In this document: one piece after another, positions 644 through 11,327 of the stretch | Layout: the number at the start of each line of letters is the position of its first letter | Numbering within the stretch: the first letter of the stretch is position 1 | Assembly (NCBI GenBank): GCA_048937405.1 | Contig: JBHLNF010000024.1 | Location: 1-21,707 of the forward strand | Source: Promethearchaeota archaeon | GTDB lineage: Archaea; Asgardarchaeota; Lokiarchaeia; Sigyniarchaeales; SOKP01 | Length of the DNA stretch: 21,707 nt | Direction: 5' to 3' | The notes under the pieces: generated by a model | The model's database searches: none | Told to the model about the DNA's origin: nothing | What the model saw: only the letters and a program-made list of their open reading frames with translations | Translations under genes and position numbers: made by a program

Positions 644-1894
644 ATGCTTCGTATCAACATCTTAGAACTGAACCCTTCCACCCAACAGAGGAAGATTCTT
701 AGCAAAATGTTGGTAAGATCTAGTGCCATTTGGAACCTAGGGAATTATGCAAGGCGACAAGCATTCTTTCATAAAGATATAAAGAGTCCATCTTATTATG
801 TTCAATGTAAAGAACTAAAGAACAACGATCTTTATAAATCGTTAGGATCCGCATATTCCCAGCAATTTTTAAAGAAATTGGATAAATCATGGCAGTCATT
901 TTGGAATTCTTTAAAATCTGAGAATATTGCACATAAGGTATCAATCCCTCGCTATTTTAAGAATTATAAGACTAATCAAACACTCCCTAAATTATTGATT
1001 TGTCGAAACGATTGTTACCATATTGATCGGGATTATATTTATATTTCTTGTTCCAAGGACTTAAAGGAAGAATATAGAAGGAAAGGACTCATGAAAATAA
1101 GATATAAAGGCATAAGAAAATGGAAGGGAGAGCAAAAGGCTATGGAGATTAAATATATTCCCTATATTAAGAAATTTTATGCGTATCAGACTGAAGAGGT
1201 AGCTTCTACGCCCATAGACTTTGAAGAAGAGAATATTTGTTCTATCGATTTGGGAATTAAGCGATATCTTACCACCTACATTAAAACCTCTGAAGATATC
1301 TCTCTTATCTATGAATCAGGGCATATATTTCAAGAATATCTCATTCTTTCAAGAAGAATCGCCTCTTATCAAGCAAGAGCTAAAAACGAGAATAACACCT
1401 ACACTACTCATAGAATTAGGAGATTATATCTTAAAAGAAGACGAAAACTCCATAACTATCTTAATAATATTGTGGCACATTTATTTCGGAAATTGAAGCA
1501 CTATCAGGTCTCTAAGGTAGTAATCGGAGAATTAAAAGGGATTAGAGATTCTCAAATTCCCTCCTATTATAAAAATAAGAAAAAGATCAATGAAATGATT
1601 CAAAACTTCTGGTCAGTTGATCTTTTAAAAAAAAAAATAAAAAATAAATGTGAGGAGTTTGGAGTTGAACTTGTGGAAGTCGATGAAGCCTATACATCTT
1701 CTACTTGTCCCATGTGTAATAAGAAGGTCCGTCCGAATGATAGAATGTTTAAGTGTCCTCATTGTGGGTATAAGCAAGATAGAGATGTGGTAGGGGGTAT
1801 TAATATTCTTAAGAAATATTATCATGATCATCAGATTGATGATGTAAGGGTAGAGAACTATCCTTTAGTGTCTACGATTCTCATTGAATCATAG
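644..1894 (+). CDS. tnpB: RNA-guided endonuclease TnpB (IS200/IS605 family)
   Basis: 416 aa. N-terminal 'ELNPSTQQ' segment, RuvC-I SIDLG, RuvC-II VIGEL, EAYTSSTCPMC...FKCPHCG zinc finger, RuvC-III DRDVVGGINI. All three acidic catalytic residues are present. Confidence 0.95.
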   Translation: MLRINILELNPSTQQRKILSKMLVRSSAIWNLGNYARRQAFFHKDIKSPSYYVQCKELKNNDLYKSLGSAYSQQFLKKLDKSWQSFWNSLKSENIAHKVSIPRYFKNYKTNQTLPKLLICRNDCYHIDRDYIYISCSKDLKEEYRRKGLMKIRYKGIRKWKGEQKAMEIKYIPYIKKFYAYQTEEVASTPIDFEEENICSIDLGIKRYLTTYIKTSEDISLIYESGHIFQEYLILSRRIASYQARAKNENNTYTTHRIRRLYLKRRRKLHNYLNNIVAHLFRKLKHYQVSKVVIGELKGIRDSQIPSYYKNKKKINEMIQNFWSVDLLKKKIKNKCEEFGVELVEVDEAYTSSTCPMCNKKVRPNDRMFKCPHCGYKQDRDVVGGINILKKYYHDHQIDDVRVENYPLVSTILIES

Positions 1895-1953
1895 GGACTA
1901 CGAATCCATACCCGATGAGGAATGGTAGTTCAATTCTTTTTTAATACTAACAT
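1801..1953 (+). ncRNA. Predicted omegaRNA/reRNA of TnpB (scaffold ~1801-1933, guide ~1934-1953)
   Basis: Consecutive hairpins at 1801-1821, 1827-1843, 1846-1865, 1866-1900 and 1906-1925 overlap the tnpB 3' end and run to TCAA. TnpB reRNAs are known to derive from this position. The 5' boundary is uncertain. Confidence 0.7.
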
Positions 1954-2136
1954 GCGATTCTCACATATATTCTCATACCATTTCTTATTTTTACGAAGTT
2001 CTGAAACAATATTCATACACATAAATTCCTTGTAATTGCTATATTTTTCTGGTAATTCGTTTTCTACTGATGGCATTCTTTTTATAACTTTTCTTTTTAG
2101 TTTATCTTTTTCACATAACCTACATTTTACTTCCAT
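1930..2136 (-). CDS. Small Cys-rich putative zinc-ribbon protein (68 aa)
   Basis: MEVKCRLC...FMC...ICENRM. AAGGT SD lies 7 nt upstream of the ATG. The TGA stop lies inside the IS right end. Confidence 0.65.
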   Translation of the reverse strand: MEVKCRLCEKDKLKRKVIKRMPSVENELPEKYSNYKEFMCMNIVSELRKNKKWYENICENRMLVLKKN

Positions 2137-2576
2137 TTTTTTACCTTTTTTAAAAATATTCTAAACGTCCATTTTGTATTCGAACACACAATTATTAACA
2201 CAAATTTCAAATTTTTAATATGCATTTTAAAGTAGACGTAATTACTAGACAAGTGAATTACGAACATTTAAACTTTGTAGTTTAGAATTATTGTTGGTTA
2301 AAATCTCTTATATTTTTCAAGATTTTGATTTTATAAACAGGATCTACACACAGGAAAAAAGCTAGTTCTTGCTAAAATTTCAAAATTTTTCACTTTTTTT
2401 TCTTAAAATATTTTAGTTTAACCCTATTAAAAAATAAATAAGGAAAGTATTTTTATTACAAAATTTGAATTATAATTTTCATAATACCAAGGTTTATTAA
2501 ACTTAAAACTATATTTTAAATACTTGAACAGAGAAATTTCAATGTTACAAGTATAAAATTAAAAATTGGTGAAAGT

Positions 2577-2717
2577 ATGTCTCATAGAAGTTATGGCAAT
2601 AGAACGATGCACAAAGCTACATGCGCTAATTGTGGAAAGGAGTGCGAAGTTCCATTTAAGCCTACGGAAGGCAGAGATGTTTATTGTCGAGAATGTTATA
2701 GAAAGCATAGAAGATAA
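2577..2717 (+). CDS. CxxC-x17-CxxC domain small zinc-finger protein (46 aa, absent from the ORF track)
   Basis: Translation MSHRSYGNRTMHKATCANCGKECEVPFKPTEGRDVYCRECYRKHRR* matches the family pattern CxxCG...VPFKP..GR.VYCxxC. GGTGA SD at 2568-2572. Confidence 0.93.
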   Translation: MSHRSYGNRTMHKATCANCGKECEVPFKPTEGRDVYCRECYRKHRR

Positions 2718-3161
2718 TTTATTCTATTTTTTCTAAGTTTAGTTATAAACAAAAACTTATTTTCTAACTTATTAAGTAATACCTTATTTTTTTTTATTTT
2801 CTTTTTAAGTCCTAGATCTATAAGAATAAACCTACATAAAATAATTAAAGTCCACGTTTAAAGGCATCAACCAGTTCAAGTTTAAATATTAGAAGATTTT
2901 TATCAATATTTTGAGTTAAAAATGGGGACTAGAGACTAATGATTAATTTTACAAAAGATCAAATTTTTGGGTATATTGATTATTTCTTCTGATTCCTGAT
3001 ATGAAAAAATTCTATCTTTTCATATTTCTCCCAGAATTAATATAGTTCATTACAGATTTTCGATATTTATGGGGAATTTTATTCCATTTTTTAACGTATA
3101 TATAAAAGGCTTATTACCTTAACAAACATAATATATTTAAGAATTTTATTTTTTAAGCGAC

Positions 3162-3463: not shown

Positions 3464-4324
3464 TTAATGCACTAGAGTTAATGGTTCTTCTTTAAATAAA
3501 TGTTCACTTAATTCCCACAATCTTTTTTGAGTTTCCAGATTGTATGATGCTTCCGATGAGTCAACAGGTTCACACTTTACGAAATATTTTCCTGTTATTC
3601 CTTGGACTTCGGGTGAACTTGCTAGGTAAATGGATGTTTTAGCACCCTTTTTAACACTTATAGCAAAGAGTCTAGCGAATGCAAATAATACTTTTAATAG
3701 AGTATTCCGTCCACGTTTACCAAAGTTAGATCTTACAAATCCAGGATGAAGTGCATTAACTGTCACTCCCGTCCCTTCAAGTCTTCGAGCGAGTTCATAT
3801 GTAAAAAGCAAATTTGCTAGTTTTGAATTAGAATAGGCAAGAAAGCTTCTGTAATGCTTCTTCTGGTTAATATCATTGAAATTTAGGTTAGCTCTTCTGT
3901 GAAGAGCAGAAGCTACATTAATAATCCTTGAAGGGGTCGATTGTTTTAAGGTATCTAATAACAATTGTGTTAAGAGAAAATGCCCCAAATGGTTGACGGC
4001 AAATGTTTTTTCATATCCTAAGGGGGTAATGATCTTCTTACTTATTGATGTGCCTGCATTATTTATCAAAACATCGAGTCTATCATACTTTTCTTTAAAT
4101 TGAGTGACTGCTTTACGAATTGAATCTGGATCAGCTAAATCAGCAATAAATAATTCAATATTGTCAGAATAAGTTACTTTTTTGAGCTCCTGAAGCGCTG
4201 CTTCTCCTCGTTCCTTACTACGACAAAGCATAACAATTGTAGCGCCTCTTTCCGCTAAAACTCTTGCGGTTTCTTTACCAATTCCCGAATTTGCACCTGT
4301 TATCATAACAATTTTTCCATACAT
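3464..4324 (-). CDS. Short-chain dehydrogenase/reductase (retinol dehydrogenase-like)
   Basis: TGANSGIG, LINNAG, NHLGHFLLT, YSNSK catalytic motif, LHPGFV. Confidence 0.95.
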   Translation of the reverse strand: MYGKIVMITGANSGIGKETARVLAERGATIVMLCRSKERGEAALQELKKVTYSDNIELFIADLADPDSIRKAVTQFKEKYDRLDVLINNAGTSISKKIITPLGYEKTFAVNHLGHFLLTQLLLDTLKQSTPSRIINVASALHRRANLNFNDINQKKHYRSFLAYSNSKLANLLFTYELARRLEGTGVTVNALHPGFVRSNFGKRGRNTLLKVLFAFARLFAISVKKGAKTSIYLASSPEVQGITGKYFVKCEPVDSSEASYNLETQKRLWELSEHLFKEEPLTLVH

Positions 4325-4715
4325 CCTAATATTACTACTTTCATAATTTTCAATTTCTATGGTACATCACCAAAAACTAGACATAAAAGTATTAACTTAA
4401 GTTCAAGCATAATAAAAAATAAAATATCATGAGAAATCAACAGAATTCGATAAAGAGTTTTTAATTTTATGTTATAATTTGAAGGTAATACTTAATTAAA
4501 TCTATTTATTAACTCCAAATAATTTAAAGTTATCCTTCTTGTAGGTTCACAAAATTTAGAATAGAATTTATTACACCATAATACATATGTTATATCGGAT
4601 TGAGGTTTTGGTATATCTCTAACTTTTTCAATATAAAGAAAAATAATGGGAATCTATGATCAATAATATATTTAAAAGATAAAGAGAACTAATTAAGAAA
4701 GGGAGGTGTAAATAA

Positions 4716-4910
4716 ATGCCAAATGTTACCATAGATGGTCCTTCAATTAAGGATTTGGAAATAAAGAGAACATTGGTCAAAGAAATAACTGATGCTTTAG
4801 AAAAGGCTTATAAGATACCTAGAGATGCTTATATAGTTGTAATAAAGGAGAATCTCGCTGAAAATGTAGGAATTGGTGGAAAATTATTAATAGATCGAGC
4901 ACAAAAATAA
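4716..4910 (+). CDS. dmpI: 4-oxalocrotonate tautomerase family protein (archaeal DmpI type)
   Basis: Catalytic Pro-1 after the Met (MPNVTIDGP), KRTLVKEIT, ENVGIGG. GGAGGTG SD 7 nt upstream. Confidence 0.9.
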   Translation: MPNVTIDGPSIKDLEIKRTLVKEITDALEKAYKIPRDAYIVVIKENLAENVGIGGKLLIDRAQK

Positions 4911-8533: not shown

Positions 8534-9277
8534 TTATTCTCTAAAGACAAATCGGCTGTATCGATTCATTTGACCAAAATAGTCGAATAAGGCATCTACT
8601 CCTCTAATTCGTAAATCAGTATTAAGGGAGATTTTATTGTGAAGAAGTCCCATAGGGGGGATTTTAGCCATTTCATCTGCAATATTATTAACTTCTTCTT
8701 CCAGTTTATCTCGTGGGACACTCAAGCTAACAAGTCCCATTTCTTCTGCTTGTTTTCCAGATACTGTTCGACCGGTCATTATCAAGTATCGTCCTTTTTT
8801 GACACCTAAATACAGTTGCCATAAAGGCATACTCGGTGCTCCGCCCCATTTTATAGCAGGGTGTCCGAGTATCGCATCTTCTGCTGCCACTGAAATATCA
8901 CATAGTAATTGAAGATAACATCCAGCATCGGTACAGTAACCATGAATCTGGGCAATAGTAGGTTTTGGAAAATATAATATCCTTGGGTATTTTGCATATA
9001 TCTTTTTATTCAGGATTTCATATGAGTTTTTATACTTCCATCCTCCTTCGGGTACTGTCATATAATAGGATTGCTTTAGATCAAAACCAGAACAAAAACT
9101 CTTCCCGTTAGCTTTTAACACAATTACTTTTGCTTTATCATCTGCTTCAGCCTCATTAAGTACTGCATCTAAATCATCAAGTAACTGAAAATTTAGGGCA
9201 TTATGTTTTTCTGGCCTATTTAAAGTTATATAGCCAGTATGTTTAATAGTCTCATAAATTAATGTTTCATATTCCAT
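8534..9277 (-). CDS. Enoyl-CoA hydratase/isomerase (crotonase) family protein
   Basis: ITLNRPEKHNAL, FCSGFDL, KPTIAQIHG, MTGR...AEEMGLV. Confidence 0.92.
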   Translation of the reverse strand: MEYETLIYETIKHTGYITLNRPEKHNALNFQLLDDLDAVLNEAEADDKAKVIVLKANGKSFCSGFDLKQSYYMTVPEGGWKYKNSYEILNKKIYAKYPRILYFPKPTIAQIHGYCTDAGCYLQLLCDISVAAEDAILGHPAIKWGGAPSMPLWQLYLGVKKGRYLIMTGRTVSGKQAEEMGLVSLSVPRDKLEEEVNNIADEMAKIPPMGLLHNKISLNTDLRIRGVDALFDYFGQMNRYSRFVFRE

Positions 9278-9435
9278 ATTAACACCTTTTAATTTTTATA
9301 TTATTTCAACTAATCATTGAAATTTTATAAAAACTTTTGAATATTTCTAAAAATCAAAAAATGAAGCCTCTTTTTTAATTTATATTTATAAAACGCATTG
9401 ACTCATTTAAGTTTAAAATCAAAATATATTTTAGA

Positions 9436-9663
9436 ATGTGTTCTGAGAAATTAGTAAAAATTGCAGACGTTATCATTCTATTAAGCCTTACTATTCAAAC
9501 TTTAAGAAATCGGTTAAACAGCTGATATATGAATACTATCATCGGAAAAGGAGGACATTGAAAGTTCCGAAGGTATAAAACAAATAAGATGAAAAAAGAA
9601 CTTTTAGAGGGGATTTGAGAAAAATAATTTTCTTTAAAAGAATTAAATAAGAGAGAGAAATAG
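9436..9663 (+). pseudogene. tnpA: Decayed, internally deleted IS607-family tnpA (MerR-type HTH remnant)
   Basis: Translates MCSEKLVKIADVIILLSLTIQTLRNRLNS*YMNTIIGKGGH*KFRRYKTNKMKKELLEGI*EK*FSLKELNKREK*. This resembles the IS607 TnpA HTH (QTLRNW..G...GGHRR). Stops at 9523, 9559, 9616 and 9625; the final TAG abuts the tnpB ATG; no serine-recombinase catalytic domain. Confidence 0.72.
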
Positions 9664-11184
9664 ATGAAACAAACCATAAAATTTCGTTTATATCCAACCA
9701 GCTCCCAGGAGCATCAATTACACAATATTTTTACAATCTATAACAAAATTAAGCGAATCGGATATAAATTATTTTATGAGCTAAGAGAGATTGATTTATC
9801 TAAAAATGAAAAGCGTAAAATTGTCCAACCTCACTTAATGGAACTTTGTCAGAATAATCCTTATGTAAATAGCATTCTAATCGACTGTGAAAAAAGATTA
9901 GCTCAACAAGAAGCGTGGCTTGAAAAACGAGCAAGATTCCTCATAAATCAAATCGAAACAATTAAAAATGAAATAGCACGGATAGTGGAAAAGGATAACA
10001 AGGATAGAAGATTAAAAGGACTTTATTCTCGGTTATCCTTTGCGCAAAACAAATTAGATATTTTGCAATTTAAGCCTGTTGTATTTGGTACAAAGAGATT
10101 ATTTAGAATGCGAATTTTACGAAAGATGACCAGAAAAGAATTTAGATTCAAAAGAGATTCTTCATTTTGCTGTATAGGAAAGAAGCAAGGGATTAATTTA
10201 AATTTGAAAATCCTTCCAAACATGACTCTCAAAGTAAGGACGTTCTCTAAAGAAAAGGAAAAGAAATGGCTAATTATCCCCTTTACAGTTAATTACATGC
10301 AAGAAAAGTGGTTTGATGAAATACTTGATTTAGAGCTTTATCAAGTTGAAGTAGTAAGGAGGATTAATAAAGGAAGAGTCCTCTGTTTCGCACATATTAC
10401 CTATGAAATTCCAGAAGAAGAGCCACGCCATGGATTTGAAAACGGAGCAATTGGGCTTGACATGAATTATAATTTTGCTTGCCTTAGTAATGTGGATATA
10501 CGAGGGAATTTTAAGAGCTTTCACGAAATCCACTTCAGAAATTTACACTCATATCGTAAATACAAACGTACCGATTATATTAATTATAAGATGGAAAAGG
10601 TGGTAAACTATTGTTTAAATAAGAAGAAAGGACTTGTTATTGAAGATCTTTTTTTTGAACAAGAATTCTCTTATGGGAAAAAACGAAATAGAAAGTTCAA
10701 TAATTTCAAAACATCAGCGTTAGACTTATTAGAACGAAAATGTCTTAAACGAGGAGTTTCAATTAAAAGAGTACATCCAGCATACACCACATTAATTGGT
10801 AAATATAAATATTCACAATTATATAACTTCTCTACTCATATATTAGCAAGTTATGTAATAGCTCGAAAAGGTCTGGGGTTTTCGGAAGAGATTCCCGTCC
10901 GTTACAAGTGGGTGCTTGCACAAGTCGGGGACGCGATAAAGCCCCGTTTGAAACCAAGCAGTCCCTACCGTGATTGGGCAAAACTTCACGACTTTTTCAA
11001 GCATAGCGGGATAACGTCCTTCAAGACTTCCAAAGTAATGCAAAAAACATTACAAATGAAGCATGTCTTGAACTCGGTAACGAGCGAACAGCCTGATAAC
11101 CTTAGGGTTGGCCTTTCCTCTTCAGGAAAGATTGATAATTGGAATAAATTTTGGAAATTTATAGAAATTACCAATTTTTTATAA
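9664..11184 (+). CDS. tnpB: TnpB-related RNA-guided nuclease family protein (zinc-finger-less, RuvC D-E-H type)
   Basis: 506 aa. KFRLYPT N-terminus, VVFGTK, RuvC-I IGLDMN, RuvC-II LVIEDL, VHPAYTTLIGKYKY, STHILASYVIARKGLG. Confidence 0.88.
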   Translation: MKQTIKFRLYPTSSQEHQLHNIFTIYNKIKRIGYKLFYELREIDLSKNEKRKIVQPHLMELCQNNPYVNSILIDCEKRLAQQEAWLEKRARFLINQIETIKNEIARIVEKDNKDRRLKGLYSRLSFAQNKLDILQFKPVVFGTKRLFRMRILRKMTRKEFRFKRDSSFCCIGKKQGINLNLKILPNMTLKVRTFSKEKEKKWLIIPFTVNYMQEKWFDEILDLELYQVEVVRRINKGRVLCFAHITYEIPEEEPRHGFENGAIGLDMNYNFACLSNVDIRGNFKSFHEIHFRNLHSYRKYKRTDYINYKMEKVVNYCLNKKKGLVIEDLFFEQEFSYGKKRNRKFNNFKTSALDLLERKCLKRGVSIKRVHPAYTTLIGKYKYSQLYNFSTHILASYVIARKGLGFSEEIPVRYKWVLAQVGDAIKPRLKPSSPYRDWAKLHDFFKHSGITSFKTSKVMQKTLQMKHVLNSVTSEQPDNLRVGLSSSGKIDNWNKFWKFIEITNFL

Positions 11185-11327
11185 ATAATTATAAGGTTAG
11201 TAATTGGTATCATTATTTAGAACACTTAAGTTCCAATGATTGTTAAACAAAGGATCTAAGAAAATTTAAGAGTCTAAATAGTTATATAATTGCTTAGCAA
11301 AAAATTAGGTTTATAATGATTTGAGGT

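Follow-up and report, generated by a model that had tools for sequence, protein, structure and literature searches.

A non-autonomous IS607-family element with an uninterrupted tnpB and an overlapping predicted guide RNA gene in an Asgard archaeon

Anatomy of the element and state of its tnpA

The window, meaning the whole stretch of 21,707 nucleotides of Promethearchaeota DNA that was analysed, contains a 1.9-kb non-autonomous IS607-family element on the forward strand, in which a tnpA remnant is followed by tnpB and by a predicted omegaRNA gene that overlaps the 3' end of tnpB (Table 1). The left end contained an inverted repeat, TTTCAA (9304-9309) and TTGAAA (9317-9322), followed by the TATA-like TTTTATAAAAA (9323-9333), and this candidate region probably serves as both the TnpA binding site and the element promoter. 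In 27 family loci the left end lay 130-840 nt upstream of tnpB, and the sequence 5' of it was unrelated from locus to locus. The homology of the host DNA to the ech-upstream region of related genomes ended at about 9299-9305. At all 27 loci the left flank had A or T at position -1, the junctions were AT-rich with no clear core dinucleotide, and a TAM logo built from these left flanks showed nothing beyond A/T richness. At the right end every copy closed with ...TAAATAATTnnAAGGTT (window position 11198) and shared nothing further; when about 55 copies with unrelated flanks were compared, conservation fell off abruptly past AAGGTT.

Table 1. Features of the element in the window
Feature	Position	Strand	Remarks
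Whole element	9299..11198	+	DNA homology among copies: start TATTRTTTCAAC..., end ...AAGGTT; host homology stops at ~9299-9305
Left end	9299..9361	+	conserved in 27 family loci; also present in the L012 miniature element
tnpA remnant, 183 nt	9436..9618	+	tblastn with intact L035 TnpA: E 8.8e-14; 7e-12 in a second search
tnpB, 506 codons, intact	9664..11184	+	uninterrupted ORF; zinc-finger-less D-E-H type (D266, E327, H392)
Predicted omegaRNA (reRNA) scaffold, ~289 nt	10910..11198	+	overlaps the last ~92 tnpB codons and 14 nt past the stop
Covarying omegaRNA helices	10910-10965, 11006-11022, 11035-11053, 11073-11084, 11089-11110, 11111-11132	+	RNAalifold
3'-terminal omegaRNA stem-loop	~11137-11190	+	recurs in single-sequence folds; ends ~8 nt before the boundary
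Predicted omegaRNA guide portion	11199..11218	+	host DNA adjoining the right end (AGTAATTGGTATCATTATTT); length assumed

A search for the empty site found ech and hxlA adjacent in no related genome searched, and the right flank gave no BLAST match to the ech loci. At one locus, L016, a collinear local alignment resumed just past the right-end junction; its score was marginal, being reached by 2 of 200 shuffles, and it is suggestive of a trace of the uninterrupted host site. A divergent enoyl-CoA hydratase gene (8534-9277, minus strand) has the left end only about 21 nt ahead of its start codon (window 9277-9299), and the insertion displaced its original upstream region. Relatives without the element have unrelated sequence upstream of the enoyl-CoA hydratase gene. 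No group I intron of the IStron kind was seen in the element.

Pooling genomes and metagenomes gave 88 family loci; the scan of genome contigs with a single protein yielded 3 and the metagenome scan with an alignment yielded 79. An intact IS607 TnpA was found directly upstream of tnpB at five of the loci (L035, L044, L076, L080 and L090). The upstream ORF of the relatives was 207-215 aa long and ended 0-120 nt before tnpB, and the TnpA proteins of L035 and L080 had MerR/HTH_17 and Resolvase domains. TnpA-like sequence was kept at 20 of the 88 loci, about 6 of them intact and the remainder frameshifted, truncated or short relics; tblastn with the L035 TnpA found no TnpA-like sequence at the other 68. 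Measured from the left end to tnpB, the copies fell into three length classes, one of about 810-840 nt with tnpA present, one of about 130-165 nt from which tnpA was cleanly lost and which was the commonest, and one of intermediates of 211-365 nt that included the window copy at 365 nt. At one locus (L028, SDBT01000354.1) two family elements lay close together (1621-3138 and 4148-4765), a tnpA-less copy being followed about 1 kb downstream by the intact tnpA of a second copy.

The sequence-only reading had described the stretch upstream of tnpB as a 228-nt tnpA remnant with four internal stops, consisting of an HTH and a probable C-terminal tail without the recombinase domain. The identification as an IS607 HTH-and-tail relic held up in the tblastn searches with the L035 TnpA (Table 1), but the length and the number of stops had to be revised. 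Translation of the frame at 9436-9663 gave stops at codons 30, 42, 61 and 64. Codons ~1-46 aligned to the MerR-type HTH of the L035 TnpA with about 63% identity by hand count, and the last ~15 codons of the remnant aligned to the TnpA C-terminus (...KKELLxGI-stop). Since the end of the remnant matches the C-terminus, codon 61 is the natural tnpA stop; the true remnant ends at 9618 and is interrupted prematurely by TGA at codon 30 and again at codon 42. About 147 codons encoding the serine-recombinase domain are deleted. The remaining stretch, 9619-9663, is a normal tnpA-tnpB spacer of 45 nt, identical in length to that of L035, and so the observation that the remnant lies in frame with tnpB carries no meaning. 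When the remnant, its stops replaced by X, was searched against Pfam, no match appeared even at E 10; judged by the alignment to L035, we read this as a false negative, the match being revealed only by the family's own intact TnpA.

No intact cognate TnpA was found in this assembly. Because the recombinase domain is deleted and two nonsense mutations are present, the window copy appears unable to move by itself and is, to judge from its sequence, stranded. On another contig of this genome there is a second IS607-type tnpA (G000:C10:106256-106821, minus strand; L105/L106), which is about 31% identical to the family TnpA and, being in two pieces with a stop, is a pseudogene.

A D-E-H TnpB with the features of clade RIIIr-4

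The 506-codon ORF was found uninterrupted, as had been read from the letters. Its residues 1-26 matched HTH_OrfB_IS605 in Pfam (E 3e-5) and residues 299-375 matched the NCBIfam model TIGR01766, 'TnpB-related', with 32.8 bits against a cut-off of 32; the score for the RNA-guided TnpB subfamily model was far under its cut-off. As sequence matches these family assignments seem weak but specific. In an alignment of 56 homologues D266 (GLDxN), E327 (IED) and H392 (LSTHxLASYVIARxG) were invariant, and the canonical D-E-D RuvC triad was absent, with H392 at the third position. Between PAYTT and H392 there were only about 20 residues and no CxxC, leaving no zinc finger, and no full match to the Cas12f1-like_TNB/Zn-ribbon Pfam models was obtained, the relatives matching at most the first 28 model positions below the cut-off. 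Both the His at RuvC-III and the missing zinc finger had been noticed correctly at the outset. All 62 family-invariant residues were retained in the window protein, which departed from the consensus at 11 of 203 highly conserved positions (family median 6); this raised count could reflect a somewhat relaxed constraint.

There were about 317 homologues, nearly all of 496-518 aa and 57-79% identical to the window TnpB, the nearest at 79%, and those with a named source all came from Asgard bins (Promethearchaeota, Lokiarchaeia, Thorarchaeota and Hermodarchaeota). An exhaustive search reached a larger superfamily of 1315 representatives at E<=1e-3 with about 25-35% identity, which shared the motif NPAYTSxIGxxKY...LSxHxAAAxVIARRGLGF; the RuvC-III His was nearly invariant across these representatives, and the alignment mostly ended near residue 410-420. 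One family member of 656 aa (P0121) carried about 175 extra N-terminal residues without a Pfam match, and by Pfam it is not a TnpA fusion. For five homologues (P0059, P0068, P0074, P0093 and P0119) the precomputed annotation gave PF27229.1, which our own Pfam search of these proteins did not; PF27229.1 may be a newer Pfam model for this TnpB family.

An AlphaFold model made with the family alignment as input had a pLDDT of 80-95 for residues 1-410. A long hairpin of two helices (67-110 and 116-133, pLDDT about 90) lies within this span, in agreement with the long coiled-coil-like insertion that had been proposed for about residues 75-135. A Foldseek comparison of the model to the PDB returned Cas12k, Cas12f, CasX, Fanzor2 and TnpB, all with probability 1.00 and with E-values from 3e-9 to 1e-4. 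Cas12k and Cas12f came first, and Fanzor2 (9b0l) was at rank 32. The family profile reached only Cas12f-type chains among the PDB sequences, and the search with the single protein returned only chance coiled-coil matches. The predicted structure thus places the window protein in the TnpB/Cas12 superfamily, with a RuvC (RNase H-like) nuclease fold and WED and REC lobes. The evolutionary interest that the sequence-only reading had attached to a relation between IS607 TnpBs and Fanzor2 found no particular support in the Foldseek ranking or the PDB profile search.

The sequence-only reading had called this TnpB atypical, which overstates its position. The absence of a C4 zinc finger and the change of the RuvC-III Asp to His define the major TnpB clade RIIIr-4 (Altae-Tran 2023, PMC10691335), and by these published features the window TnpB would belong to that clade; like RIIIr-4 proteins, it lacks the zinc finger between RuvC-II and RuvC-III and keeps the RuvC-I Asp and the RuvC-II Glu. 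The authors considered the clade likely to be active since the change is conserved (PMC10691335; PMC10278001), and they describe separate events in which it became associated with a TnpA of the Y1 or the serine-recombinase type (PMC10691335). We found no biochemical test of a D-E-H TnpB in the literature. Compared to RIIIr-4 as a whole, the subfamily in the window occurs only in Asgard metagenome bins, keeps a uniform length of about 506 aa, has an unusually long omegaRNA overlap of about 92 codons and has no RHH/MazE partner.

The last difference bears on a possible toxin-antitoxin-like role, as proposed for the RHH/MazE-TnpB branch of this clade; here the HTH peptide upstream of tnpB would act as the antitoxin. 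RIIIr-4 does include TnpBs linked to RHH/MazE genes (PMC10691335), and an HTH-coding stretch does lie upstream of tnpB in the window. However, what lies there is no RHH or AbrB gene but a TnpA pseudogene, interrupted at codons 30 and 42, and most relatives lack any upstream gene; we consider a module of this kind most improbable.

The predicted omegaRNA, the C-terminal tail and the guide

The sequence-only reading had noted a C-terminal extension of about 95 aa. The extension is present and its length is conserved among the relatives, but the constraint on it acts mainly at the nucleotide level. The GC content was 0.47 at 10825-11124, compared to about 0.30 around it, and the DNA identity among copies peaked at the omegaRNA stretch (0.87-0.96 versus about 0.8-0.87 in the catalytic core). 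When 65 copies were aligned by codon, the third positions had a variability of about 0.42 over the body of tnpB; this dropped to 0.27, 0.25, 0.135 and 0.20 over the final four blocks of 30 codons, with no change at positions 1 and 2. The ratio of third- to first/second-position variability was about 1 for residues 451-506. For residues ~412-450 it was about 2, and a Trp there was conserved across the superfamily, which suggests that some protein-level constraint persists in this part. The dS was saturated in the core of tnpB and only 0.10-0.33 in the tail, a drop of about tenfold.

RNAalifold on 62 copies predicted 50 base pairs, 25 of them with compensatory changes (e.g. UA/CG 30:30). In the pairing control 97.7% of the cells were paired and 0 of 500 shuffles reached any of five measures, and the covariation score was 0.272 compared to 0.056-0.075 when the partners were slid. 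The 3'-terminal stem-loop (Table 1) was not called by RNAalifold on the sub-alignment. The scaffold matched no Rfam family, the best being sok at E 0.96. A sharp boundary between scaffold and guide has been used as a criterion for omegaRNAs, which generally have a 3' stem-loop shortly before that boundary (PMC10278001); at this locus we found both a structured RNA at the 3' end of tnpB and a sharp scaffold-guide boundary.

Copies of the RNA region were also found by themselves. About 1.4 kb upstream of a full copy there was a miniature derivative (L012:1136-1710, G018:C56), composed of the left end (cf. 9299-9361), about 220 nt, and then the omegaRNA and right end (cf. 10906-11198), with no tnpB, and it may be a guide-RNA-only non-autonomous element. 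At L107:1006-1287 (G052:C13:422505-422786), and also at L108, L109 and L110, there were solo copies or pieces of the omegaRNA and right end, 82-95% identical to window 10916-11198, in genomes in which no family tnpB was found.

The collapse of the third-position variability and of dS, the covariation, the pLDDT below 50 for residues 420-506 and the solo copies together argue that the C-terminal 'extension' arises chiefly because the tnpB frame continues across the omegaRNA gene; it would thus be largely an overlapping RNA gene and not a new protein domain.

The sequence just past the right end, which would serve as the guide, differed in every copy (~55 copies). The window guide falls in the hxlA upstream region (11199 onward), and a search of this genome with 20 nt and up to two mismatches gave no second match.

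The arrangement closely resembles known systems. Like other members of the IS607 family, this family has the order tnpA-tnpB, the TnpA domain architecture (in the relatives), asymmetric ends, an omegaRNA that stops at the right end and draws its guide from the flank, and frequent tnpA-less derivatives; unlike them, the window copy retains only an HTH-plus-tail relic of tnpA, and its TnpB is a zinc-finger-less D-E-H protein and not of the typical DRDxN type. The TnpB of ISDra2/IS605 (8exa, 8h1j) has the same fold (Foldseek E ~3e-5 to 6e-5), and there too the omegaRNA overlaps the 3' end of tnpB and has a 3' stem-loop within about 8 nt of the guide. In contrast, ISDra2/IS605 elements use a Y1 transposase where this family uses a serine recombinase, and the ISDra2 TnpB differs from the window TnpB by its zinc finger and its RuvC-III Asp. 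The scaffold in the window is also longer than that of ISDra2, and the window TnpB has a helical hairpin insertion in the REC region.

Distribution, selection and the probable role of the element

The element is present in one copy in this genome. Among the 41 genomes of the genus, 4 had full copies, with 0-3 per genome and all at different loci, and a search of 16 genomes from other families within the order yielded none. A close homologue of the window tnpB was located between unrelated genes. Thus, the check on copy number and locus that had been proposed with the sequence-only reading gave copies scattered over loci across the family, but a single copy in this genome. Seven copies at different loci shared one tnpA-less junction between the left end and tnpB, and they differed by an unsaturated dS of 0.17-0.64 with a dN/dS of 0.13-0.30; compared to relatives, the core of tnpB had a dN/dS of about 0.04-0.1. 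Since the junction is shared, the seven copies appear to descend from one deletion, and since their loci differ and their dN/dS is low, they would have moved after the loss of tnpA with tnpB under purifying selection. The earlier proposal that tnpB stayed under selection after the loss of the transposase was borne out in these tnpA-less copies. The pattern is what an IS family comprising both autonomous and non-autonomous members would show, and not that of a host gene.

The selection seen in the relatives also bears on whether the element is functionally dead in this genome, with tnpB and omegaRNA unused and merely not yet broken. A single copy in an assembly without an intact cognate TnpA, a tnpA remnant that already has a deletion and two stops, and slightly raised deviations at conserved sites (11 versus a median of 6) would fit such a relic. 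However, the ORF is open over 506 codons in a genome of 30% GC, none of the 62 family-invariant residues, the catalytic triad or the covarying RNA helices has been lost, and the tnpA-less relatives are under purifying selection. The stops, 2 in 61 remnant codons versus 0 in 506 tnpB codons, also speak against it, although a rate based on two events gives only a rough indication. We consider a dead relic rather unlikely.

The second possibility raised by the sequence-only reading was a domesticated TnpB, acting after the loss of mobility as an RNA-guided binder or regulator of the TldR or Cas12k kind or as a host nuclease. An intact tnpB beside a dead tnpA in a genome without transposase, a nearest homologue that is just 79% identical and a guide in the hxlA upstream region would fit domestication, and TldR/Cas12k-type nuclease-dead relatives share the fold, Cas12k being the top Foldseek match. 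In contrast to the window element, those relatives no longer have the catalytic residues; they occupy fixed loci together with partner genes, and their guides are conserved. The element in the window is not fixed beside hxlA. It lacks synteny, being carried by only 4 of the 41 genus genomes at other loci and in differing contexts. Guides vary from copy to copy, and that of the window copy had no second target in this genome. TnpB has retained its catalytic residues and the element both of its intact ends, and autonomous and mobilised relatives exist. Domestication is therefore very unlikely. There is a small chance, only slightly greater, that the tnpB-omegaRNA pair is kept by selection without a cognate transposase in an early stage of host capture (e.g. 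through the guide in the hxlA upstream region), or that the dual-coding tail of about 92 codons has a protein function of its own.

Given the anatomy of the element, its family relations, the covariation in the RNA, the purifying selection and the scattered loci, we conclude with a probability of about 0.82 that the element at 9299-11198 belongs, as a non-autonomous copy, to an Asgard-specific insertion sequence of the IS607 family and has an intact tnpB-omegaRNA module for homing or retention. A homing/retention role has been shown for TnpBs of IS605 and IS607 elements, and the earlier suggestion of a selfish homing nuclease in a non-autonomous lineage fits the scattered loci, the differing guides and the purifying selection. 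The autonomous ancestor would have resembled the relatives in which a MerR-HTH serine-recombinase TnpA is followed by TnpB and then by the omegaRNA, and the window copy would have lost the recombinase domain by internal deletion and acquired two nonsense mutations. A transcript through the 3' end of tnpB would give a folded scaffold of about 289 nt up to the right end, with the adjoining host flank as the guide. TnpB (D266/E327/H392, without zinc finger) would bind this omegaRNA and cut a vacant insertion site, and repair from the occupied copy would restore the element there. We infer that the module is expressed, that its RNA is processed, that its D-E-H site acts as a nuclease and that a TAM is recognised, and by analogy the D-E-H TnpB presumably keeps the retention mechanism of known TnpBs. 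Because this genome has a single copy and its sole other TnpA-like gene is different and broken, homing would have no excision to act on here.

IS607 elements, the TnpB clade RIIIr-4 and omegaRNAs are all known already, and the element in the window is a further member of each. It lends no support to a special link from Asgard archaea to Fanzor. Its main value lies in annotation, as an odd-looking Asgard TnpB can be assigned to the RIIIr-4 clade, to an ordinary IS607-type element and to a well-defined guide RNA. The family is also well suited to testing the activity of a His-containing RuvC site, since it offers about 300 proteins of nearly full length, forms that are autonomous, tnpA-less or miniature, and a scaffold of 289 nt that has strong covariation, an exact scaffold-guide boundary and a second role as coding sequence.
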